Source: Myxococcota bacterium | GTDB taxonomy: Bacteria; Myxococcota; JAJVIH01 | Assembly (NCBI GenBank): GCA_022072125.1 | Contig: JAJVIH010000016.1 | Coordinates: 29,081 to 93,080 of the forward strand | Direction: 5' to 3' | DNA length: 64,000 nt | In this document: piece by piece, positions 46,527 through 55,109 of the stretch | Position numbering within the stretch: position 1 is the stretch's first letter | Layout of the letters: each line of letters starts with the position of its first letter | Notes under the pieces: generated by a model | Seen by the model: the letters and a program-made list of their open reading frames with translations, nothing else | Database searches by the model: none | What the model was told of the DNA's origin: nothing | Program-made: the position numbers and the translations under genes

Positions 46527-49500
46527 ATGCGCAAGAACCTGTTGCTTCCAGTCTGCTTCGGAATATTCATCGCCGCCATCCAGTCGTGTTCGGGATGCCG
46601 TGAAACCGGCGGAGCCCCGCGCGCGCTGCGCGAGGCTAGCACCCAACCGGTCGCCGCCGTCAAGGAAATCCGCGCCCTTGCGGCCGCTGACTGGGGCGCC
46701 GCGGTTGGCGGCTCCGATGGCGTGGTGGCGGGCGTTCCCGCAAACGGATCGGCGCCCTTCGAGTTGCGCGGGCACGCAGCGCCGGTGACCCGGTTGTGCT
46801 TCGCCGCGAATGGCGAGCGGCTGGTTTCACTGGATCAATCCGGCGCCGCCAAGGTCTGGAACATCACATCGAAATCATGGTTGCGGGACCTGGCGCAAAA
46901 GGCCCCGGCCGTCACCGCCATGGCCAGCGAAGACGGATGGGCGGCGGCTGGCGCGGCGACCGGCGATATCACCCTGTGGCGGCCCGGGCCCGGGGGCGCT
47001 CCGGAACGGATCGAGGGACTATCAGCAGGGTCGGCCGTGCGCGCGCTGGCGTTTTCGCCTCGCGCAAAGCTGCTCGCCGCGGGAACCGAGGACGGCGCGT
47101 TGCGCATCCTCGATGTGGAATCGGGGTCGTGGCGGCCCTCCGCGGCCGCCTCCGGACCCGCCATCGCCGCCGTGCGCTTCGTCGAGACAAACGGCGTGAC
47201 GCGGCTCGTGGCGGTGCGGCGCAATGGTGAGTTCGCCTGGGCCGCGCCGGACGCCACGGACTTTCCGTGGCGGTCCTCCGGCCTCGATAAATTGAGCGCC
47301 GCCGCCATCGGCGGGCGCGGTGAAATCGCCGTGGCCCGTGACAGCGATCTGCGCGTATTCTTTCCCTCCGCCAAAAACAGCGGTGACTGGGAGCCGTGGA
47401 CTCTGCCCGCCGCCATTCCCCACGCGGCCGGCATCAGCGCATTGCATGTCTCGGGAGATGGAAAAACCGTTCTCACGGGCGGGCGTGACGGTCTTGTGGG
47501 TGTTTGGGATTCCCGCGGCGACGAGGTGAAAATCGTCTTTCGTGATCACGGCAATGTTGTAAGCGCCCTCGCCATGGACCCCCAGGGCAAGGTGATCGCC
47601 AGCGCGTCGGCGGATGGACAGATGATCTTCTGGCGGCTCAAGGGCGAGTTGCTGATCCTCAAGGCGAAGGCGGCGGGACCGCTCGCCGCACTGACGTTCG
47701 CAGCGCCGGACCGGGTGATTTCCGGCGGCGCCAGCGGCGAGATCGCGGCGTGGGATGTCTCCCTGACCCTGCCCGAATTGTACATGCGCCGGTACGTGCC
47801 CAGCGACTACCAGTACGCCTGCGCCAGCGGCGGCCAAATCATCGCGGCGGGGGATGGCTCGCGCAATGTGTGGCTGTGGGACAAGGACAACAACCGCATT
47901 CGCGTCATGCTCAAGGGTCTGACGGGGGCGGTGACGGCGATGGCGCTCAATCAGGCCGGGACAAAACTGGCGCTCGCCACCGGAGACGGGAAGCTTTGGA
48001 CATTCAATCCGGGAGATGGACAGCAGTTGCGCGAGGCGCCGCTGGTCACGTTGTCCCAACATGCGTTGAGTTCGGCTTTGATCCACCGCCTGGCGGCGGC
48101 GGGAGACTGGGTGATCGCCGCCGGTCCGCGTCATGTATGGGTGTGGAACAGCGCCGCCTCTTCCGTGAACGTGGTGGAGTCTCCCGGGGCGGCGGGCGGG
48201 CCGGTGGACGTGGCGGTTTCCGGCGATTCATCCGCCGCCATCCTGCACGACCGGCACGTGCGGCTTCTGGACCCGGCCAAACCGCCGCAAATACAAACCA
48301 TTGTATTGCCCAGGAGCGGCGCCAGCCGCATCGCGCTGGCGCCCGGCGGCGGCTTTGTCGTGGGGTTCGGCGATGGCGCGGTCGAACGCTACAACGCCAA
48401 AGGGATGGCGGCGGGCGGTTGCAAGGGGCTGACTGGTCCCGTGTTGCGCTTGGCGGTTTCCGCCACGGCCATCGCCGCCTCAACCGCCGGCGACGAGATG
48501 CGCTGGCCGGTCACGTGCGGCGCGGGCAAGCTGGCGCAGGCGCCCAGCGACATGGCGGCCGCGTGCCGTTATCAGAATGGACATTTGGTCGAGACCTCTC
48601 CGGCGCTGCTCGATTCCTTGCGCACCGAGGAGCCGCAACTGTTTGAACTGGTCGAGCCGCGGCGCCGGGAATTCACCGCGGCCGCGGCCGGGTCCAGCGG
48701 CATGGGCGGACAAATGGTGCTTGTCGCGTCGGCAGCCGGCGAGGTTTCCGTGCGCGACGCCGCCGCCGGCCGCGTGATCAACGCCTGGCCGCATTCCTCT
48801 CCGCGCACCGCCGCTTTGTCCGTGCCGCGCGCGCCCATCTTCGTGGTGGGATCGGAAGACGGCGCGTTGCAGGTGCTCGACGCCAGCACCGGCAAGGATC
48901 GCGTGTTCACCCAGACGGGGCGCGGCGGCGTGCGCGCCATGGCGGCCGGGCCCGATCAGTTCGCCGTGCTCTACGAAAAGGGCGTGGCCCTGCGCGCCTT
49001 CGCCACCCTCGCCGAAACCGCGTGGGCGCCGCTCGAAGGCGTGAACGCGATCAGCGTGGCGGCCGGCAAGGACATGGTTTGGGTGGGAGATGACAAGGGC
49101 GCCATCCACCCCATTGGGGTCAATGGAGAAAAATCCCGTCCCGTGCAGGCGGGAAACGCGCCCATCCGCGCCCTCGCCGCCGGGAAGGATGGCGTATTGT
49201 GGGCGGGCGACAACGCCGGTTTCCTGTGGCGGATTCCCGCCAGCGGCGCGCCGGAAAAATTCCCGCTGGATTCCACGGCCGTCACCGGGCTTCAGTTGGT
49301 CTGGAATGATCAATGGCTGATCGCGCTGACTTCCAGCGGCAAACTGCTGGCGTGGGACATCGCCCAATCGGTCATCCGGTTTGAAAAAACCGGCCTGGGC
49401 GGTCACAGCGATGTGCTGGCGGTCAGCGCGGACAACGCCTGGGTCATCAACGCCGGGCAGACGGGAGCGCAGGTCTGGCGGCTGAGCCGCGGCGAATTTC

Positions 49501-50090
49501 TTGCTTCATTGAAGGAGAGCGCGCCCATCTTCGCCGGGCTGGCCTGCCATCCCGCCCAGCCCGTCGCCTGGGTGGTCACCTCGCGCGATGAACTGTGGGA
49601 ATATCAACTGGATAGCGGTCAGGCCGGTGTCAACAAGAGTTTTTCCGGGGCGATACTGCGGCGCAACAAGGAAGAAGAGGAAGCCGCCTGGTCAGTGAGC
49701 ATCAACGGGGCCGTCATACCGGTTGACAGGGATTCCATGTCCGGGATCGGGGAGCGCAAACAGACCCGTATGCGGGCCGGCATGGGGGACGTGATCACAA
49801 CCATTCACCAAAAGGGCGATAGCTGGGTCTGGTCCCACCCCGCGCTTCCGGAGGAAGGCCTGAAGGTGTTTCCCGCGGGCGCACGGCTGTTGGCCTATGA
49901 CTGCGGTGGAAAGGATGCCTGCACCGCCGTGGCCACGGATCGGGTGGTGTGGCTGAAGGCGGCGCCCCAGGCGTCGTCCGTGACGAGACCGTTGCCCCGT
50001 CCCGCCATCCTGGCCCGGATTCATGGCGACCGGCTTTTCGCCGCCGGGGCGCCCAATATCGTGACGGTTTATCCGTTGCAGGCGGATTGA
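46527..50090 (+). CDS. Giant WD40/beta-propeller repeat lipoprotein, 1187 aa
   Basis: Lipoprotein signal peptide MRKNLLLPVCFGIFIAAIQSC; repeated WD-like ...GHxxxVxxLAFSPxGxxLAxGxxDGxLRIWD patterns throughout. Confidence 0.85.
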   Translation: MRKNLLLPVCFGIFIAAIQSCSGCRETGGAPRALREASTQPVAAVKEIRALAAADWGAAVGGSDGVVAGVPANGSAPFELRGHAAPVTRLCFAANGERLVSLDQSGAAKVWNITSKSWLRDLAQKAPAVTAMASEDGWAAAGAATGDITLWRPGPGGAPERIEGLSAGSAVRALAFSPRAKLLAAGTEDGALRILDVESGSWRPSAAASGPAIAAVRFVETNGVTRLVAVRRNGEFAWAAPDATDFPWRSSGLDKLSAAAIGGRGEIAVARDSDLRVFFPSAKNSGDWEPWTLPAAIPHAAGISALHVSGDGKTVLTGGRDGLVGVWDSRGDEVKIVFRDHGNVVSALAMDPQGKVIASASADGQMIFWRLKGELLILKAKAAGPLAALTFAAPDRVISGGASGEIAAWDVSLTLPELYMRRYVPSDYQYACASGGQIIAAGDGSRNVWLWDKDNNRIRVMLKGLTGAVTAMALNQAGTKLALATGDGKLWTFNPGDGQQLREAPLVTLSQHALSSALIHRLAAAGDWVIAAGPRHVWVWNSAASSVNVVESPGAAGGPVDVAVSGDSSAAILHDRHVRLLDPAKPPQIQTIVLPRSGASRIALAPGGGFVVGFGDGAVERYNAKGMAAGGCKGLTGPVLRLAVSATAIAASTAGDEMRWPVTCGAGKLAQAPSDMAAACRYQNGHLVETSPALLDSLRTEEPQLFELVEPRRREFTAAAAGSSGMGGQMVLVASAAGEVSVRDAAAGRVINAWPHSSPRTAALSVPRAPIFVVGSEDGALQVLDASTGKDRVFTQTGRGGVRAMAAGPDQFAVLYEKGVALRAFATLAETAWAPLEGVNAISVAAGKDMVWVGDDKGAIHPIGVNGEKSRPVQAGNAPIRALAAGKDGVLWAGDNAGFLWRIPASGAPEKFPLDSTAVTGLQLVWNDQWLIALTSSGKLLAWDIAQSVIRFEKTGLGGHSDVLAVSADNAWVINAGQTGAQVWRLSRGEFLASLKESAPIFAGLACHPAQPVAWVVTSRDELWEYQLDSGQAGVNKSFSGAILRRNKEEEEAAWSVSINGAVIPVDRDSMSGIGERKQTRMRAGMGDVITTIHQKGDSWVWSHPALPEEGLKVFPAGARLLAYDCGGKDACTAVATDRVVWLKAAPQASSVTRPLPRPAILARIHGDRLFAAGAPNIVTVYPLQAD

Positions 50091-50258: not shown

Positions 50259-51443
50259 ATGCGTGACCCGCTCATCATCGGCTCCCGGGGGAGCGATTTG
50301 GCGTTATGGCAGGCGCGGAGCGTGGCCTCGGCGCTGCAATCGCAACTGGGCCTGCGCGCCGGATTGCAGATTATCAAAACCCAGGGCGATCAGATTGATC
50401 ACCTTCCGCTCAACAAACTCGAAGGCAAGGGATTCTTCACCAAGGAACTGGAGGAAGCCCTGCTCGCGGGCCGCGTGGATATCGCCGTCCATTCGCTGAA
50501 GGATTTGCCCGTGGAACAGCCGCCCGGCCTGGTCATCGCGGCGATTCCGGAACGGCACGATCCCGGCGAACTGCTGCTGTTCCGGCCCGATGTGTTTGAT
50601 CCCGCCAATCCATGGCTGCCCATCCGCGCGGGATCGCGGGTGGCCACTTCATCGCCGCGCCGCGAGGAGCAGTTGAAGGAAATGGGATTCGCCTGCACGG
50701 GCATGCGGGGCAATGTTCCCACGCGTATCCGCAAGCTGCGGGACGGCGCCGCGGACGCCCTGTTGCTGGCCGTCGCCGGCGTGGAGCGGCTGGGGCTGAA
50801 CTTGTGCGGGCTGGGCGCGGCCAACGCCAGCGCAGGCCCCGGTTCCGTTTCCGGCGGCGTGATACCGGCGCCGGGGCAAGGCGCCCTGGCCATCCAGATC
50901 CGTCAAAGCGACGGAGCTCTGTTCAAGGCGCTGCAAGGGCTGGATCACATGGAAACCCGTTTGTGCGTGACCGCGGAGCGGCTCTTGTTGTCGCGCCTGG
51001 GCGGCGGATGTCACCTTCCGCTGGGTGCGCGGATTCGCCCTGGCGCCGGGGCATGGACCGCGCAGGCCGCCGTGTACACGGCGGGGCTTTCAGGCCGTTG
51101 CGCCTTCACCACGAACGCCAACTGGCCGCGGCGCGCGGAAGAGGCCGGGGTGGACCGCGCCGCGGCGGAGCTGGCGGATGAAATGGAACACCAGTTGCGG
51201 AACAAGGCCGGACCGCTTTCCGCGCCGGACCCCGCCAGTTCGCGTCAGACCGTCCTGATGGCGGGAGAGTCCCTGCCGGCGGAAGAGGTGTTCCGCCGCT
51301 TTCACCAGGGCGCCTGCGTGGTGTGGCGCGCCTCGGTTGATCCCTGGCCTTTTGGCGAGGCGTTCTTCGATGAGGCCCTGGCGGCGGACGCGCAGGCGGC
51401 GGATATCATCCGCGCCCATGCCCGGCGGGTGCGGGTGGCGTGA
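50259..51443 (+). CDS. hemC: Hydroxymethylbilane synthase (porphobilinogen deaminase) with an about 80-aa C-terminal extension
   Basis: IGSRGSDLALWQA...GNVPTRIRKL...LSRLGGGCHLPLGA HemC core; 394 aa versus a usual length near 310. Confidence 0.88.
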   Translation: MRDPLIIGSRGSDLALWQARSVASALQSQLGLRAGLQIIKTQGDQIDHLPLNKLEGKGFFTKELEEALLAGRVDIAVHSLKDLPVEQPPGLVIAAIPERHDPGELLLFRPDVFDPANPWLPIRAGSRVATSSPRREEQLKEMGFACTGMRGNVPTRIRKLRDGAADALLLAVAGVERLGLNLCGLGAANASAGPGSVSGGVIPAPGQGALAIQIRQSDGALFKALQGLDHMETRLCVTAERLLLSRLGGGCHLPLGARIRPGAGAWTAQAAVYTAGLSGRCAFTTNANWPRRAEEAGVDRAAAELADEMEHQLRNKAGPLSAPDPASSRQTVLMAGESLPAEEVFRRFHQGACVVWRASVDPWPFGEAFFDEALAADAQAADIIRAHARRVRVA

Positions 51444-51519
51444 CCCCGCTGCCCGGTGAAGCGGGCTTGCGGACACAGTCCCTGCGCAATCCCGGCAAGT
51501 TTGCAATCCATCCTTCCCT

Positions 51520-51700
51520 CCATTAGGTTGGTTTTCACGCCCTGACATGTCGTCAGGACGTGGGAGGAAGCCGGTGCGAATCCGGCGCTGACCCGCAACC
51601 GTGAGTTCTGTTTCCGACAGAACAAGCCGGGAACTCCTTCACTGCAACTCCCTCGTGGTCTGGGGCAGGCAGAATCCGCATTCAGCGCCGCATGGCCGTG
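51520..51700 (+). ncRNA. Cobalamin (B12) riboswitch candidate
   Basis: Core GGGAGGAAGCCGGTGCGAATCCGGCGCTGACCCGCAACCGTGAG matches the consensus AGGGAA..GGTG.AA.TCC..GC.G.CCCGC.AC.GT.A; B12-box-like TTCACTG and GGGGCAGG downstream; in the 5' leader of the 51785 gene. Confidence 0.6.
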
Positions 51701-51784
51701 CCGTCAGGCCGGCCGGCGCCATCCGGTTTCTCTCCACAAACACGATGGGGTTTCTCACGCGACCCTTCTCTGGAGGAAGCCGAG

Positions 51785-52816
51785 ATGACCCATCCCAAGT
51801 CCGTTCATTCCATTTCCCTTGCCGTGCTGCTGGCGCTTTCCTGCTGGCTGGCCGGCTGTTCCGGCGACGCCGCGTCTTCCGATGGCGGATCAAACGCCGG
51901 CGGCGCCGGCCCCAAGGACGCCTCGCCGCCGCCGGATGCGGGCCCCGCCGATGGCGCCTTATCTGACAGCGCCCCGGCGGACGCCGCTCCAGGCGATGTG
52001 GCTGCAACTGACACGGCGCCTGGCGACGCCCAGCCGGCGGATGCGGGCGCGCCAGATGCGAATCCAGTGGACGCCGGCCCCGCGGATACGGCGCCCGCCG
52101 ATGCGCAGCCCACCGACACCCAGCCCGGCGATGGCGGTCCGGCGACGGCCCCGGGGCTGGCGATTGCGGGCGTTTACGCCAACAGTTTCGGCGGCTACGA
52201 GGAAATCACCAGCGCCCTGTGGAACGATACGCCCATCGTCGAGTTCGATAACAACAAGCGCGTGGTCTATACCCGGAATCCAGCGGATGCGAAGTTCAGC
52301 CCGGGCAAATTCAACAAGATCGTATTCACGGTTCCGGGCGGCGCATCGTTCCATTACTGCTTCGCGGACTTTGGCCTTGACTCGCTGGAGGCGGCGAAGG
52401 CGTCATCCAAGGCCGTGGACGAAAGCGATCCGGACAAGAAAGGCTGCGGCGGATTCTCCTGGACCAAATTGACCGCCACGGATCCGATTGAAATCGCCGG
52501 AACCTGGTCCAGCAATTTCGGCGGCGAGGAGATCATCCGCAGCATCCGCTGGGGCAAGGCGTCCATCAAACTCTTCGATAACGGGTCCAACACCGCCTAC
52601 ACGCAGAATCCGGAAGACGCCCCGGCCGGAGCCAGGAAATTCAGCAAGCTGGTCTGGACCGAACCGGTGGGCGGCGTTTTCCACTACTGCACGGTGGATT
52701 TCAACCTGGACACCCTCGCCGCGGCGCAGGCTTCGGCCAAAACCGCCGATCCATCCAACCCTGAAAAGGGAGGCTGCGGCGGGTTCTCCTGGACCAAACT
52801 CAACAGGAAAAACTGA
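51785..52816 (+). CDS. Lipoprotein with two tandem ~100-aa repeats of an unrecognised domain
   Basis: ATG with GGAGGA RBS; lipobox LAGC; PADA-rich linker; repeats IAGVYANSFGG...FHYCFADFGLDSLEAAKAS...KKGCGGFSWTKL and IAGTWSSNFGG...FHYCTVDFNLDTLAAAQAS...KGGCGGFSWTKL. Confidence 0.78.
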   Translation: MTHPKSVHSISLAVLLALSCWLAGCSGDAASSDGGSNAGGAGPKDASPPPDAGPADGALSDSAPADAAPGDVAATDTAPGDAQPADAGAPDANPVDAGPADTAPADAQPTDTQPGDGGPATAPGLAIAGVYANSFGGYEEITSALWNDTPIVEFDNNKRVVYTRNPADAKFSPGKFNKIVFTVPGGASFHYCFADFGLDSLEAAKASSKAVDESDPDKKGCGGFSWTKLTATDPIEIAGTWSSNFGGEEIIRSIRWGKASIKLFDNGSNTAYTQNPEDAPAGARKFSKLVWTEPVGGVFHYCTVDFNLDTLAAAQASAKTADPSNPEKGGCGGFSWTKLNRKN

Positions 52817-53580
52817 TGCGCCATCTGTATTTCTGCGCCGCGGCCCTGTGGCTGGCGGCCTGCGGGGAAAACATCATCCCAACCGTCCACTCCACCCCCG
52901 ATGCATCCATGGCGGATGCATCGGGGCCGTCCGGTGATGCGGGTTCCGCGGACGCCGCGGTTTCCGGCGGCGATGCTTCCGCCGGGTCTGGCGGGGAGGC
53001 GGACGCCGGCGCCACCCCCGCGCGCAAGGCCAGTCCCCACGCGGGGCGGGTGGCCGGATACAAGCCCGGCGAGGGAGCGGGCTTTGGCCAGGACAAAATG
53101 CCGGACATCGTGCTGGGGCCGCCGCAGGGCGCCGGACCCGAAGCCGGCAGCCTGCATGTCCTCTCCCTCGGCAAAAATGGTCATATCGTTCTTGAATTCG
53201 TGGATATGGTGATGGTGGATGGCCCGGGACCCGACCTGCTGGTCTTTGAAAACGCCTTTCCGGCCTATCAGGAGACGGGCGTGGTGGCCGTCAGCGATGA
53301 TGGCCGGAACTGGTCCGAATGGCCTTGCGCCGCAACGGATAAGGAGAACCGCTTCCCGGGCTGCGCGGGGGTGAACCCGGTGCTGAGTTCGCCGGACAAC
53401 GGCGTTCCGGCGAACGATCCCCGGCAATCCGGCGGGGACGCCTTTGATCTGGCGGAATTGGGTGTGAAGCGGGCGCGTTTTGTGCGCATCCGGGACAGCG
53501 GATACAACAGCTACGAGGGAATCAGCGGCGGCTTCGATCTGGACGCCGTGGCCATCATCAACGGCGAGCCGGTGAAATGA
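52816..53580 (+). CDS. Hypothetical lipoprotein (beta-rich)
   Basis: Lipobox LAAC; Asp/Ala/Gly-rich linker; 1-nt overlap with the upstream gene. Confidence 0.78.
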   Translation: MRHLYFCAAALWLAACGENIIPTVHSTPDASMADASGPSGDAGSADAAVSGGDASAGSGGEADAGATPARKASPHAGRVAGYKPGEGAGFGQDKMPDIVLGPPQGAGPEAGSLHVLSLGKNGHIVLEFVDMVMVDGPGPDLLVFENAFPAYQETGVVAVSDDGRNWSEWPCAATDKENRFPGCAGVNPVLSSPDNGVPANDPRQSGGDAFDLAELGVKRARFVRIRDSGYNSYEGISGGFDLDAVAIINGEPVK

Positions 53581-54053
53581 CCCGCCGGGAATGGCTGATC
53601 CAAACCGGCGCCATGGCGGCTTCGGCCTGCGCGGGAGGATGCGCGGCCGGTGGGCCGGGAACTGGCGGGGTTGCGGATGCAGGCCAGGCCTTCGCGGCGG
53701 CGGAAGCCTGCGGCGATCTTCCTCCGCCGGACAGCGGTTGGCACGCCATCCCGCTGGCGGAAATTCCCGGGCTGGCGAGCCAGGGGGTGGCGCGGGTGCG
53801 CGCCCGCGAAGCCCTGCTGCAGGTGTGGGTGGTGCGGGAGTCATCCGCCTGCCACCGGGCGGTGTGGGCGATTTGCACGCACGGGGCCTGTGAACTGGAC
53901 TGGAAACCGGAAGAACGCTGGCTGGAATGCCCATGCCATGGCTCCCGGTTCAACACACTGGGCGCCATCGTGCGCGGGCCCGCGACCCAACCGGTACGTA
54001 CGCTGCCAGCCCAGGTGCGCGAGGGTTATTTGTATATCAAACGCCCGTTCTGA
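53577..54053 (+). CDS. Tat-exported Rieske [2Fe-2S] domain protein, 158 aa
   Basis: Twin-arginine signal MTRREWLIQTGAMAASA; Rieske box I CTHGAC and box II CPCHGS; ATGA overlap with the upstream gene. Confidence 0.85.
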   Translation: MTRREWLIQTGAMAASACAGGCAAGGPGTGGVADAGQAFAAAEACGDLPPPDSGWHAIPLAEIPGLASQGVARVRAREALLQVWVVRESSACHRAVWAICTHGACELDWKPEERWLECPCHGSRFNTLGAIVRGPATQPVRTLPAQVREGYLYIKRPF

Positions 54054-54068
54054 CGGCGGAGGACTCGA

Positions 54069-55109
54069 TCACTTCACGTACACGGGGAAGCGGATTTCAC
54101 GGCCGTTGCCATTGAAGGCGGGAAATTTCCACTGGTTGACCGCGGCCACCAGACATTGACGGAACGCCTCGTCGGGAGAGTCCGGCTCCGCCACCGCCAC
54201 CGATCCCGGCGACCCGCTGGGCTGCAATACGAACTGAATCACCACGCGCGAGGTGGCGTTGTCCTCGTTGCGGTCGCGGTCGGCCTCGAAACAGGGCAGC
54301 AGCCTGGGGATATTCCGGCGAATCCGCGAATAAATATCCGTGGCGGAGACCTGTCCTTCGTCCACATCCATGTCTTCGCCTCCGCCGCCGCCAGGGGGCG
54401 CCGTTTCGCCCGGACCGGCGGGAGCGGGGGGCGGCGGCGGCGCGGTTTCTCCGGAGGGCGCATTTTGTTTGGGCTGGGGAGCGGCCGCCGCCAGCGCTTT
54501 CCCGGCTTTGGGCGGTTTGGCGGCCTTTGGCGCGCCAACGGCGGCGGCGACAAATTCATCCATATTGCCAATCGAAATGATCGGCGGCGGACGCTTGATC
54601 CACGCCTTGTTGTCGCCCACGGACGGCGGCTTCGCCAATGCGGCCGCCGGCGGCTGCGCGCCCGTAGTACCCGTTGGAGCGGTCTTGGCCGGGGCCTGAG
54701 CCGTTGGAGCCGCGGCGGCGGGGGATTTCTTGCGCATCCGCATCCACCCCCAGCCGGCCACCCCCACCGCGCCAAGGAGGAGAACCGCCACGGCGCCCGC
54801 CAGCAGGTTGCGGCGCGACCGGGCTGTTTCCGCTTCCAGGCGTTGCTGGTGCAGGGCCCGTTCGCGGGCCGCCTTGCCCGCCCATTCCACGAATTCAGGG
54901 ATTTCCCGGAGCGGCCGCCAGTGCGTGATCTCCGCTGGGGTCGCCTCGCAGGAATCGTCGAGTTCCCCGCGGTAGAGGCGATCCACAATCACCTGGGCGG
55001 GGGCCGGACCCTGTACGGTTCCGCCCGATCGAAACATCCATTCGCCGGGAATATTGACCTGGGGGGCCTTGGGATGGGGGGAACTGCGCGCCATGACACC
55101 GATCTTCAT
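54069..55109 (-). CDS. Protein with N-terminal DUF4339 (GYF-like) domain, TM helix, Pro/Ala-rich linker and TonB C-terminal-like domain
   Basis: GEWMFRSGGTVQGPAPAQVIVDRLYRGELDDSCEATPAEITHWRPLREIPEF; TM LLAGAVAVLLLGAVGVAGW; C-terminal ...VVIQFVLQPSGSPGSVAVAE...EIRFPVYVK. Confidence 0.78.
   Translation of the reverse strand: MKIGVMARSSPHPKAPQVNIPGEWMFRSGGTVQGPAPAQVIVDRLYRGELDDSCEATPAEITHWRPLREIPEFVEWAGKAARERALHQQRLEAETARSRRNLLAGAVAVLLLGAVGVAGWGWMRMRKKSPAAAAPTAQAPAKTAPTGTTGAQPPAAALAKPPSVGDNKAWIKRPPPIISIGNMDEFVAAAVGAPKAAKPPKAGKALAAAAPQPKQNAPSGETAPPPPPAPAGPGETAPPGGGGGEDMDVDEGQVSATDIYSRIRRNIPRLLPCFEADRDRNEDNATSRVVIQFVLQPSGSPGSVAVAEPDSPDEAFRQCLVAAVNQWKFPAFNGNGREIRFPVYVK

Follow-up and report, generated by a model that had tools for sequence, protein, structure and literature searches.

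The closest described counterparts of the locus analysed here are the cobamide-capturing surface lipoproteins of Bacteroides. In Bacteroides thetaiotaomicron, the BtuH family, which comprises BtuH1, BtuH2 and the H-domain of BtuG1/BtuGH, consists of B12-binding surface lipoproteins (PMC8941943, PMC10404256, PMC13616437). BtuH-type domains bind cobamides with nM to pM affinity, and in BtuH2 the residues that contact B12 are Tyr510, Trp511, Trp577, His476, Asn399 and Gln333, in addition to which there are Ca2+ ligands. BtuH proteins act in a cobamide relay in which BtuB is served by BtuG, BtuH, BtuJ/DUF4465, BtuK and BtuL; among these accessory proteins, a beta-propeller fold is shared by BtuG and BtuK, whereas BtuJ adopts a jelly-roll and BtuL belongs to the L-domain proteins (PMC13616437). 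The logic of this relay is that riboswitch-repressed accessory lipoproteins with long linkers are made when B12 is scarce and aid a TonB-dependent transporter. According to a September 2026 review, B12-capturing surface lipoproteins are so far known only in gut Bacteroidota and a few Firmicutes.

A second point of reference is provided by two adjacent Leptospira genes, LIC13354 and LIC_13355, which are both induced approximately 3.7-fold in the host (PMC3953431). The product of LIC_13355 has been studied as an adhesin (PMC11891782). Neither a riboswitch at these genes nor a link of the Leptospira genes to B12 was found in the literature. A host-induced small RNA of Leptospira, LIC1nc80, remains unexplained. 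We likewise found no published description of the arrangement reported here, in which a riboswitch is followed by two lipoprotein genes (P1 and P2) and a gene for a small Rieske protein (P3).

This arrangement lies in a 64-kb stretch of DNA, the whole of which was analysed and is called the window below. A near-consensus B12 riboswitch core had been claimed for its leader in an earlier note, which had also proposed a search with the Rfam cobalamin family RF00174. When the entire window was scanned against Rfam at the gathering threshold, only two matches were returned, one of which was RF00174 at 51521-51654 on the forward strand, significant at 39.9 bits against a gathering score of 31.5 (E 1.3e-6) and covering the whole model (1-189). 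The conserved core occupies 51562-51605, where the consensus GGAA-CCGGTG..AATCCGG..CCCGCAAC.GT is present, and a custom 51-position riboswitch core model (R1), validated against all Rfam matches, gave 65.6 bits at 51556-51606, bearing out the claim. The B12 box AAGCCGGGAACTCC, at 51624-51637 on the same strand, aligns to the B12-box positions of the RF00174 consensus and is kept in 29 related riboswitches; together with the core it aligns with 28 Rfam-validated relatives. The sequence TTCACTG, which the note had called B12-box-like, sits 3' of the true box in the Rfam alignment, within the closing helices, so that part of the claim was mistaken.

The low Rfam score of the aptamer is explained by a 12-nt hairpin that replaces 62 consensus positions of the P6 extension, and the aptamer is therefore a compact variant. 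Its margin over the Rfam threshold is only 8 bits. At least 11 further loci have kept this compact form. Alignment of the window aptamer with 11 compact relatives (12 sequences) revealed compensatory changes on both sides in 8 of the 19 consensus pairs, but support from covariation is only moderate because the aligned riboswitches share ancestry. The element is a genuine cobalamin riboswitch; that it binds a corrinoid and represses the operon is inferred.

Compact class-II cobalamin riboswitches, which lack the P6 extension, are functional, and such riboswitches control translation initiation. The window element has in common with them the conserved core, the B12 box, a short P6 hairpin and an SD-sequestering platform, whereas its best Rfam family is the general RF00174. 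Its membership of class II, and hence any selectivity for aquo- or methyl-cobalamin, is an inference that rests on the missing extension. The 3' end of the aptamer lies 130 nt ahead of the P1 AUG on the same strand, and the expression platform between them (51655-51787, forward strand) was defined by ViennaRNA folding only. In the minimum free energy structure, an anti-SD strand at 51720-51736 pairs with the SD GGAGGAAG (51772-51779) and with the AUG at 51785-51787, giving a predicted 16-bp helix that sequesters the ribosome-binding site and start codon of P1, and the partition function puts the unpaired probability of both SD and AUG at approximately 0. We infer, on thermodynamic prediction alone, that this helix may lock the translation start of P1. 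No intrinsic terminator was found in the leader, and a promoter and terminator scan of 51300-54300 found nothing.

Directly behind the riboswitch, P1, P2 and P3 are encoded on the same strand as overlapping genes, with TGATG shared by P1 and P2 and ATGA by P2 and P3. The reading frames and the source genome annotation, which holds the same three proteins (P0001, P0063 and P0333, each 100% identical), agree on the gene structure that the note had read from the sequence. Its description of the products as a tandem-repeat lipoprotein, a second lipoprotein and a Tat-type Rieske protein was also upheld by the lipobox LAGC and GCGGFSWTKL repeats of P1, the lipobox LAAC of P2, and the TRREWL motif and Pfam PF00355 match of P3. 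The order resembles operon-1 of B. thetaiotaomicron (riboswitch, btuK1-btuK2, btuH1) in that a riboswitch is followed by a partner lipoprotein and a protein with a BtuH-like domain, which is P2 in the window. No B12 transporter gene is encoded in the 64-kb window.

P1 (51785-52816, forward strand) carries its lipobox at Cys25, followed by a disordered linker of approximately 100 residues rich in Pro, Asp and Ala, and by two lipocalin-like beta-barrels at residues ~125-233 and ~234-343, each with the GCGGFSWTKL motif at its C-terminal end. The barrels are modelled by AF2 with a pLDDT of 97 and meet the criterion for a lipocalin/calycin fold, with a predicted eight-stranded antiparallel beta-barrel and a flanking helix. 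A lipocalin signature at the sequence level is limited to a G-x-W motif at the first strand, with no Pfam match, and a search of all PDB chain sequences with a P1 profile (A2) found nothing. The conserved residues (invariant or at least 90%) are Gly, Trp, Thr, Pro and two Cys per barrel; the Cys are invariant in barrel 1 and at least 90% conserved in barrel 2, and, judged from sequence alone, the pair in each barrel looks like a disulfide. Among known proteins, P1 comes closest to bacterial lipocalin-like lipoproteins and to the Treponema pallidum protein Tp0751 (pallilysin), which is not known to be connected with B12; identity is only 15%, and P1 is set apart by its tandem arrangement of two barrels and by the conserved pair of Cys in each. 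We know of no B12 binder with the lipocalin-like fold of P1.

P2 (52816-53580, forward strand) has its lipobox at Cys16, a linker of about 55 residues and a beta-sandwich domain of approximately 185 residues (~70-254; 53023-53577), which contains many invariant Asp, Glu, Asn and Gly positions. The earlier note had suggested comparing the three proteins with BtuG, BtuH and BtuF folds, and by structure comparison P2 was positive against the BtuH domain, meeting the fold criterion set by the BtuH2 C-terminal domain (PDB 7BIZ) or the BtuG1 H-domain (8BLW). In Foldseek, BtuH2 and BtuG1 (E ~5e-4, TMq 0.41) were not separated from generic discoidin/CBM32 domains. At the sequence level, neither 7BIZ nor 8BLW was matched at E<=10 in searches of all PDB chain sequences by phmmer with the single sequence or by hmmsearch with a close-family profile (A3) and a 28-domain profile (A4). 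The modelled P2 domain thus resembles the B12-binding domain of BtuH through a link that is structural only, with the BtuH2 contacts unmapped, and cobamide binding by P2 is inferred only. Its core is also shorter, at ~185 residues compared with ~250 for the BtuH domain.

The P2-type BtuH-like domain family is unannotated and comprises approximately 4,000 clusters at the 50% identity level. In some fusion proteins the domain comes after an Ig-like domain or a weak match to a YncE-like propeller, a layout comparable to that of BtuG1 and BtuH2 of Bacteroides; apart from one weak YncE-like and one Ig-like match in such fusions, Pfam returned nothing for P1, P2, the fused P2 proteins or the alternative partner lipoprotein described below. 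The sole curated families that match P1 and P2 are those of the Leptospira pair, whose genes are adjacent as in the window. P1 reaches 63.4 bits in two stretches against NF047669 (LIC13354 exoprotein; cutoff 130), which makes it a remote relative and not a member, and P2 reaches 22.3 bits against NF033170 (LIC_13355 lipoprotein; cutoff 120), also as a non-member. P2 resembles a known B12-binding domain by fold, whereas P1 and P3 have no Bacteroides counterpart, since no accessory protein there is lipocalin-like or a redox protein. Because of the likeness of P2 and the remote kinship of P1 and P2 to the LIC13354 and LIC_13355 families, the system is less unprecedented than first claimed.

P3 (53577-54053, forward strand) is a small Rieske [2Fe-2S] protein that carries both a twin-arginine signal and a lipobox-like Cys. 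It scores 44 bits against PF00355 (gathering score 20.3), and the cluster motif CTHGAC-x15-CPCHGS, of the high-potential bc1/b6f type, is present in P3 and four sequenced orthologues. Assignment as a cytochrome b6f/bc1 subunit (PetC/QcrA) was rejected, as equivalog cutoffs were not reached (56.5 bits against a cutoff of 250 for PetC, the closest NCBIfam model, and 37.8 against 97.4 for the proteobacterial Rieske model) and no cytochrome b gene is adjacent, the neighbours being P2 and a convergent TonB-like gene; the source-annotation name 'b6-f subunit' is misleading for the same reasons. Only 21 homologues of P3 were found. The P3-type gene directly follows the P2 gene in all ten loci with visible context, which are the window, L032, L036/L039, L037, L038, L042, L045, L046, L048 and L060, and the complete order of riboswitch, P1, P2 and Rieske gene is repeated in L037 and L048. 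The idea that the Rieske protein is not conserved was overturned by a Stigmatella locus and by the homologue search, in which it formed a small subfamily always attached to P2.

The association of these genes with the riboswitch extends well beyond the window. Among 28 loci with P1 homologues, RF00174 was found just upstream on the same strand at the gathering score in 20 and slightly under it in 4 more; R1 recovered all of these together with L028 and a contig-truncated copy in L024, so that a riboswitch precedes P1 in 26 of the 26 loci with upstream sequence, and it gave no stray matches in 402 kb. Riboswitches of 85-98 bits were also present at every P2 locus chosen independently; the sources were metagenomes, an alphaproteobacterial MAG and cultured Corallococcus, Stigmatella and Melittangium. 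In an unbiased sample of 80 metagenome P2 loci, the core was found upstream on the same strand in 29 of 34 loci with at least 2 kb of upstream sequence and in 20 of 22 with at least 4.5 kb; it was absent upstream of P2 in L044, L073 and L095 despite long upstream sequence. The leader position of the riboswitch is conserved in more than 60 loci. The expectation that homologues of the operon should occur behind B12 riboswitches or near corrinoid genes in other genomes is met by the P1 and P2 loci alike, and transporter neighbours are frequent.

The P2 gene directly follows P1 in 17 of the 28 P1-homologue loci, and one homologue (P0061) is a natural fusion of P1 and P2. In other lineages P1 is replaced beside P2 by a different partner lipoprotein, termed 'type-B'. 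The 495-aa and 433-aa partners in Corallococcus were tested as P1-like proteins and found not to be; they make up an uncharacterised family of their own, for which PDB and Pfam yielded only a match to a low-complexity linker. The partners of P2 differ from those of BtuH, with a lipocalin-like P1 or a type-B lipoprotein and a Rieske protein in place of BtuG/J/K/L, as do the host phyla, which are Myxococcota, Alphaproteobacteria and environmental lineages for P2, and gut Bacteroidota and a few Firmicutes for BtuH. TonB-dependent transporter genes adjoin P2 in approximately 18 loci and BtuC-type permease genes in about 5 distinct loci. The order riboswitch, P2, TonB-dependent transporter occurs in L069 and L088; in L085 P2 stands between a riboswitch ~1.5 kb upstream and the transporter, and in L078 and L093 P2 precedes the transporter with no riboswitch detected in the short upstream sequence present. 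P2 accordingly qualifies as a lipoprotein of a riboswitch-regulated B12 transport locus by virtue of TBDT/FecCD neighbours in many relatives, not in the window. Cobalt transporter genes (HupE/UreJ, NicO, CbiMNQO) and riboswitch-controlled nrdAB also occur in loci with P1 or P2 homologues.

Observation covers the riboswitch, the layout of the operon and the conserved association of riboswitch, P1, P2 and Rieske protein with each other and with transporters; the folds are shown as predictions. The reading that we favour, and consider probable without regarding it as settled, is that the operon is a B12-repressed envelope system for corrinoid capture, in which ligand binding, location, the direction of regulation and the role of the Rieske protein are inferred. 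Its logic is that of the Bacteroides relay. When corrinoid is plentiful, it would bind the compact riboswitch and the P1 ribosome-binding site and start codon would stay in the 16-bp helix; a joint shutdown of all three genes is proposed because the genes overlap. When corrinoid is scarce, three lipid-anchored exported proteins would be made. P2, through its BtuH-like beta-sandwich domain, is the likely corrinoid binder, for which there are no binding data. P1, with two barrels on a disordered tether of ~100 residues, is probably a second binder or hand-off partner, as suggested by its fusion to P2 in one homologue and its replacement by another partner lipoprotein. The corrinoid may then be passed to a BtuB-type TonB-dependent transporter, encoded elsewhere in the genome and adjacent in many relatives. 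Our guess for P3 is that it acts on the bound cobalt, altering its redox or ligand state and so aiding release or transfer of the cofactor. A bolder version, in which an extracytoplasmic corrinoid relay has P3 as its dedicated redox component (for example, switching the cobalt oxidation or axial-ligand state so that a very tightly held cofactor leaves P2/P1 for the transporter) and the P1 barrels are a new class of corrinoid- or corrinoid-precursor-binding domain, is speculative and in our judgement doubtful.

Envelope-located corrinoid acquisition had been one of two suggestions in the earlier note, and it is supported by the BtuH-like fold of P2 and the association with riboswitch and transporters, binding being inferred. 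The other was a B12-sparing periplasmic redox pathway, which we considered in the form of a Rieske-centred redox activity of the envelope needed only without B12, as for metE and nrdAB, with P1 and P2 as substrate-binding or scaffold subunits. The constant attachment of the P3-type gene to P2 is in keeping with such a pathway, as is L039, where a single riboswitch precedes P2, the Rieske gene and nrdAB, which encodes a classic B12-independent isozyme and which the other two genes overlap in the same orientation. However, tblastn found no P3 homologue in any of the 28 P1-based loci, and the P3-type gene is present in only 5 of the 80 metagenome P2 loci, a sample in which many sequences end too early to reveal what follows P2; a component of this rarity cannot be the core activity. 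P3 is instead a recurrent but minority, lineage-restricted accessory dedicated to P2, whose role is unknown. Moreover, P2 has the fold of a binding domain with no catalytic signature, and transporter adjacency points to uptake. To our knowledge, there is no B12-dependent envelope process in these organisms for the operon to replace. The fold match of P2 to BtuH therefore favours corrinoid acquisition, and we consider a B12-sparing function unlikely.

Similarly improbable is the acquisition of cobalt ions, in which P1 and/or P2 would be envelope Co2+ chaperones supplying an importer for de novo B12 synthesis, and metal redox would fall to the Rieske protein. TonB-dependent transporters and BtuC-type permeases are far commoner neighbours than cobalt transporters; in addition, P1 lacks a conserved cluster of His, Met or free Cys, and the best structural matches of P2 bind B12 and not metal ions. 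It is more unlikely still that the window riboswitch is degenerate and non-functional, leaving the operon constitutive in the source genome: the modest Rfam score and the missing P6 extension could be read in this way, but the compact form recurs with compensatory changes in other loci, the core scores highly with R1 and a strong predicted SD-sequestering helix is present. Finally, we find it hardly credible that these are host- or matrix-adhesion proteins, as proposed for LIC_13355 of Leptospira, with no B12 role behind an incidental or vestigial riboswitch. Adhesion would fit the binding activities that the title of PMC11891782 reports for recombinant LIC_13355, the annotation of P2 homologues as 'cell surface protein' and the frequency of the discoidin/CBM32-like fold in adhesins and lectins. 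However, where enough sequence exists, the riboswitch lies upstream in 85-100% of the loci, which come from Myxococcota, diverse metagenomes and an alphaproteobacterial MAG, so that the association is not incidental, and the Leptospira data transfer poorly because P1 and P2 of the window fall well short of the cutoffs that NCBIfam sets for the LIC families.

The analysis reveals a large unannotated BtuH-like family that is subject to control by cobalamin riboswitches in Myxococcota, many environmental bacteria and an alphaproteobacterial MAG. Two types of partner are new relative to Bacteroides: one is a protein with tandem lipocalin-like barrels, the other an exported Rieske iron-sulfur protein dedicated to this system. 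These proteins are testable candidates for corrinoid competition by soil and aquatic predators and other B12 consumers, and P2 loci are present in the culturable hosts Corallococcus, Stigmatella and Melittangium. They also raise the question of why an iron-sulfur redox protein is tied to B12 capture. If the redox-relay role of P3 were true, bacterial B12 uptake would for the first time have a described redox step outside the cytoplasm; corrinoid binding by P1, if true, would be the first case of a B12-binding lipocalin-like fold. Were both to hold, the Leptospira 'adhesin' pair LIC13354/LIC_13355 would be recast as cofactor scavengers, and our analysis thereby offers an alternative hypothesis for proteins that are now studied as adhesins.

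At the Rfam gathering threshold, the whole 64-kb window contains one tRNA, one cobalamin riboswitch (RF00174), and nothing else. The riboswitch is located at 51521–51654 on the + strand, within the 341-nt gap between hemC and the lipoprotein gene P1, with a score of 39.9 bits (gathering score 31.5; E 1.3e-6). The riboswitch core recognized in the earlier note is present in this significant match at 51562–51605, but the B12 box proposed there, TTCACTG, was placed at the wrong site; the true box is AAGCCGGGAACTCC at 51624–51637 on the + strand. The modest score is due to the replacement of the P6 extension, spanning 62 consensus positions, by a 12-nt hairpin. An alignment of 12 compact riboswitches from related loci supports 19 consensus pairs, with compensatory changes in 8 of them. 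On the 3' side of the aptamer, ViennaRNA predicts that 51720–51736 pairs with 51771–51787, a helix that contains the Shine-Dalgarno sequence GGAGGAAG and the AUG with an unpaired probability of approximately zero. With these elements buried and no intrinsic terminator predicted, the riboswitch likely acts on translation initiation, an inference made from folding only.

The three genes behind it encode proteins (P0001, P0063, and P0333 for P1, P2, and P3) that are 100% identical to annotated proteins of the source genome (GMKNLPBB_00728, GMKNLPBB_00729, and the product of the adjacent gene). Because the genes overlap at both junctions (TGATG and ATGA), P1, P2, and P3 are, judging from this arrangement, almost certainly co-expressed. 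P1 (343 aa; 51785–52816) carries a lipobox (LAGC), a Pro/Asp/Ala-rich tether of approximately 100 residues, and two repeats of approximately 108 residues each, which were modelled by AlphaFold with very high confidence (pLDDT 96.9). Its homologues have one to five such barrels, each with two conserved cysteine residues, and in one natural fusion protein (P0061) P1 barrels are joined to a P2 domain.

Other genes surround the operon. Directly upstream of the riboswitch, hemC (50259–51443, + strand) encodes a hydroxymethylbilane synthase of 394 aa; HemC models stop near residue 303, leaving a C-terminal extension of approximately 90 aa without explanation. Two genes upstream of the operon (46527–50090, + strand), a protein of 1,187 aa combines multiple WD40 beta-propellers with an N-terminus that resembles a signal sequence or lipobox. 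Convergent with P3 (54069–55181, − strand) is a gene for a TonB_C/AgmX-PglI C-terminal domain protein with a weak GYF_2 match, which is probably unrelated to the operon since it is not kept beside P1 or P2 in other loci.

The earlier note took its reading to fail if homologous operons never lay behind B12 riboswitches or near corrinoid genes elsewhere; such riboswitches were found in other genomes. Scanning the P1 alignment against 185,579 species genomes gave 28 loci, nearly all in Myxococcota MAGs; RF00174 was detected just upstream on the same strand at the gathering score in 20 and just below it in four more. A 51-position core model made from the Rfam-validated riboswitches of these loci regained every validated element and added one in L028 and another, truncated by its contig, in L024, with no stray match in 402 kb, so that a riboswitch is present in all 26 P1-based loci having upstream sequence. 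P2 directly follows P1 in 17 of the 28, several others stopping at a contig edge. Every locus picked via P2 alone also has a strong riboswitch: Corallococcus coralloides has three within 7 kb, two of which drive operons ending in P2 homologues, and the P2 loci of Stigmatella, Melittangium, an alphaproteobacterial MAG, and two metagenome contigs have one each. In a sample of 80 metagenome P2 loci, drawn without bias and scored with the core model, 29 of the 34 loci with 2 kb or more of upstream sequence had a same-strand riboswitch core ahead of P2, as did 20 of the 22 with 4.5 kb or more; the distances cluster as if P2 stood first, second, or third in the operon. In the C. coralloides locus (L029, 216–4082), a cobalamin riboswitch drives a TonB-dependent receptor; the next gene encodes a cysteine-rich (Stig1) protein of 535 aa that is MXAN_6577-like, a further unexplained member of the B12 regulon.

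P2 (254 aa; 52816–53580) has a lipobox (LAAC), a tether shorter than that of P1, and a strongly conserved domain of approximately 185 residues, with a mean column identity of 54% over the family and a model core of pLDDT >90. The comparison with BtuG, BtuH, and BtuF folds suggested in the earlier note pointed to BtuH: the two best structural matches of P2 both include the BtuH domain, which binds B12 (PMC8941943, PMC10404256). Foldseek agrees, placing BtuH-domain structures at ranks two and four with the top TM-scores, but it does not set them apart from generic discoidin/CBM32 domains. Because sequence-profile searches found no connection between the two families, we describe P2 as BtuH-like by predicted fold and not as a proven BtuH family member. 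The P2 family is large (>3,400 matches in an indexed search; an exhaustive HMMER scan gave 4,013 clusters at the 50% identity level), and the sole name for its members in cultured Myxococcia is "cell surface protein". The domain also forms the C-terminus of many proteins of 400–935 aa (P0194–P0325), most of whose N-terminal regions have no Pfam match. One has a weak YncE-like propeller match before P2 and another an Ig-like domain, arrangements also seen in Bacteroides BtuG1 and BtuH2.

The partner encoded upstream of P2 is either a P1-type barrel protein, as in the alphaproteobacterial locus (HMM E 1e-26), or, in Myxococcia, an unrelated and uncharacterised lipoprotein of approximately 450 aa ("type-B"). 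Type-B takes the place of P1 behind cobalamin riboswitches in cultured Myxococcia and occurs at L029 4505–5992 and 7489–8790, L032 3667–5004, L034 3634–5004, L035 3640–5004, and L038 2316–3749. These proteins (~430–495 aa) start with a Cys-rich N-terminus (GCGxECxDxFDC), continue through a (DAGT)n linker, and end in a domain of ~300 aa, with no Pfam, NCBIfam, or PDB-sequence match. In Melittangium and a related metagenome contig, a B12-binding radical SAM gene (L034 1341–3215; L035 413–2284) lies just upstream of the riboswitch/type-B/P2 operon.

P3 (158 aa) belongs to the Rieske proteins (Pfam, 44 bits) and has a twin-arginine motif (TRREWL), a lipobox-like Cys, and the cluster motif CTHGAC-x15-CPCHGS, as is typical for Rieske proteins of the high-potential bc1/b6f type. 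Its scores for PetC and QcrA are far under the cutoffs. Its source annotation (P0333, 53577–54053), "Cytochrome b6-f complex iron-sulfur subunit", is probably wrong, because P3 scores 56 bits against a family cutoff of 250 and no cytochrome b gene is in its neighbourhood. P3 homologues are missing from all 28 P1-based loci, which suggested a passenger; this idea was dropped, as P3-type genes directly follow P2 in every member with visible context. The subfamily is small (21 matches), with contexts in Stigmatella (47% identity), Myxococcaceae JPH2, two metagenome contigs found via P3, and five more from the metagenome P2 sample; L037 and L048 repeat the full order of riboswitch, P1, P2, and Rieske gene. 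The cluster ligands are kept in all sequenced orthologues (L032, L036, L037, L038), and the RR-plus-lipobox N-terminus is clear in three of the four, the start in L036 being uncertain. P3 is therefore a minority accessory specific to P2.

Transport genes recur beside these operons. A TonB-dependent transporter (TBDT) adjoins P2 in approximately 18 loci, in the order riboswitch, P2, TBDT in L069 and L088. In L085 the riboswitch is ~1.5 kb upstream of P2 and the TBDT follows P2; L078 and L093 have P2 then TBDT, with no riboswitch detected in the little upstream sequence there. BtuC-type permeases occur in about five distinct loci. In L016 (3167–10414), a riboswitch precedes a HupE/UreJ_2 transporter, two unannotated ORFs (105 and 121 aa), P1, and P2, followed by a second riboswitch driving a TonB-dependent receptor and an unannotated 464-aa protein. 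The 64-kb window itself contains no B12 transporter. Together with the BtuH-like fold of P2, this transport-gene context leads us to favour corrinoid capture, a function that is inferred without binding data; handling of cobalt ions instead remains a minor alternative. A B12-sparing activity is less favoured on the same two grounds. In L039 (5225–10978), a riboswitch is followed by nrdA-nrdB, an overlapping P2 homologue, a P3-type Rieske gene, and a thioesterase; nrdAB encodes a B12-independent ribonucleotide reductase, and a further riboswitch is located within 7 kb, as are NicO and CbiMNQO.

Among curated families, P1 and P2 match only LIC13354 and LIC_13355, both well below cutoff; these are an adjacent pair of remote relatives in Leptospira interrogans. 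Both are induced ~3.7-fold in the host, and LIC_13355 has been studied as an adhesin; the transporter context and the fold of P2 nevertheless favour corrinoid capture over adhesion. The literature on the pair reports no link to B12 and has not considered a role in B12 scavenging, and a full-text search found no paper joining a cobalamin riboswitch with a Rieske protein and a lipoprotein. Of known systems, the Bacteroides cobamide relay, in which BtuB acts with BtuG/H/J/K/L, comes closest. P2 is at best a very remote relative of Bacteroides BtuH, whose homologues are, according to the most recent review, restricted to gut Bacteroidota and a few Firmicutes; none of the Bacteroides accessory proteins is lipocalin-like, unlike P1 (by predicted fold), or a redox protein, unlike P3. 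By inference, the P1-P2-P3 operon nonetheless shares the logic of that relay, in which riboswitch-repressed accessory lipoproteins serve a TBDT.
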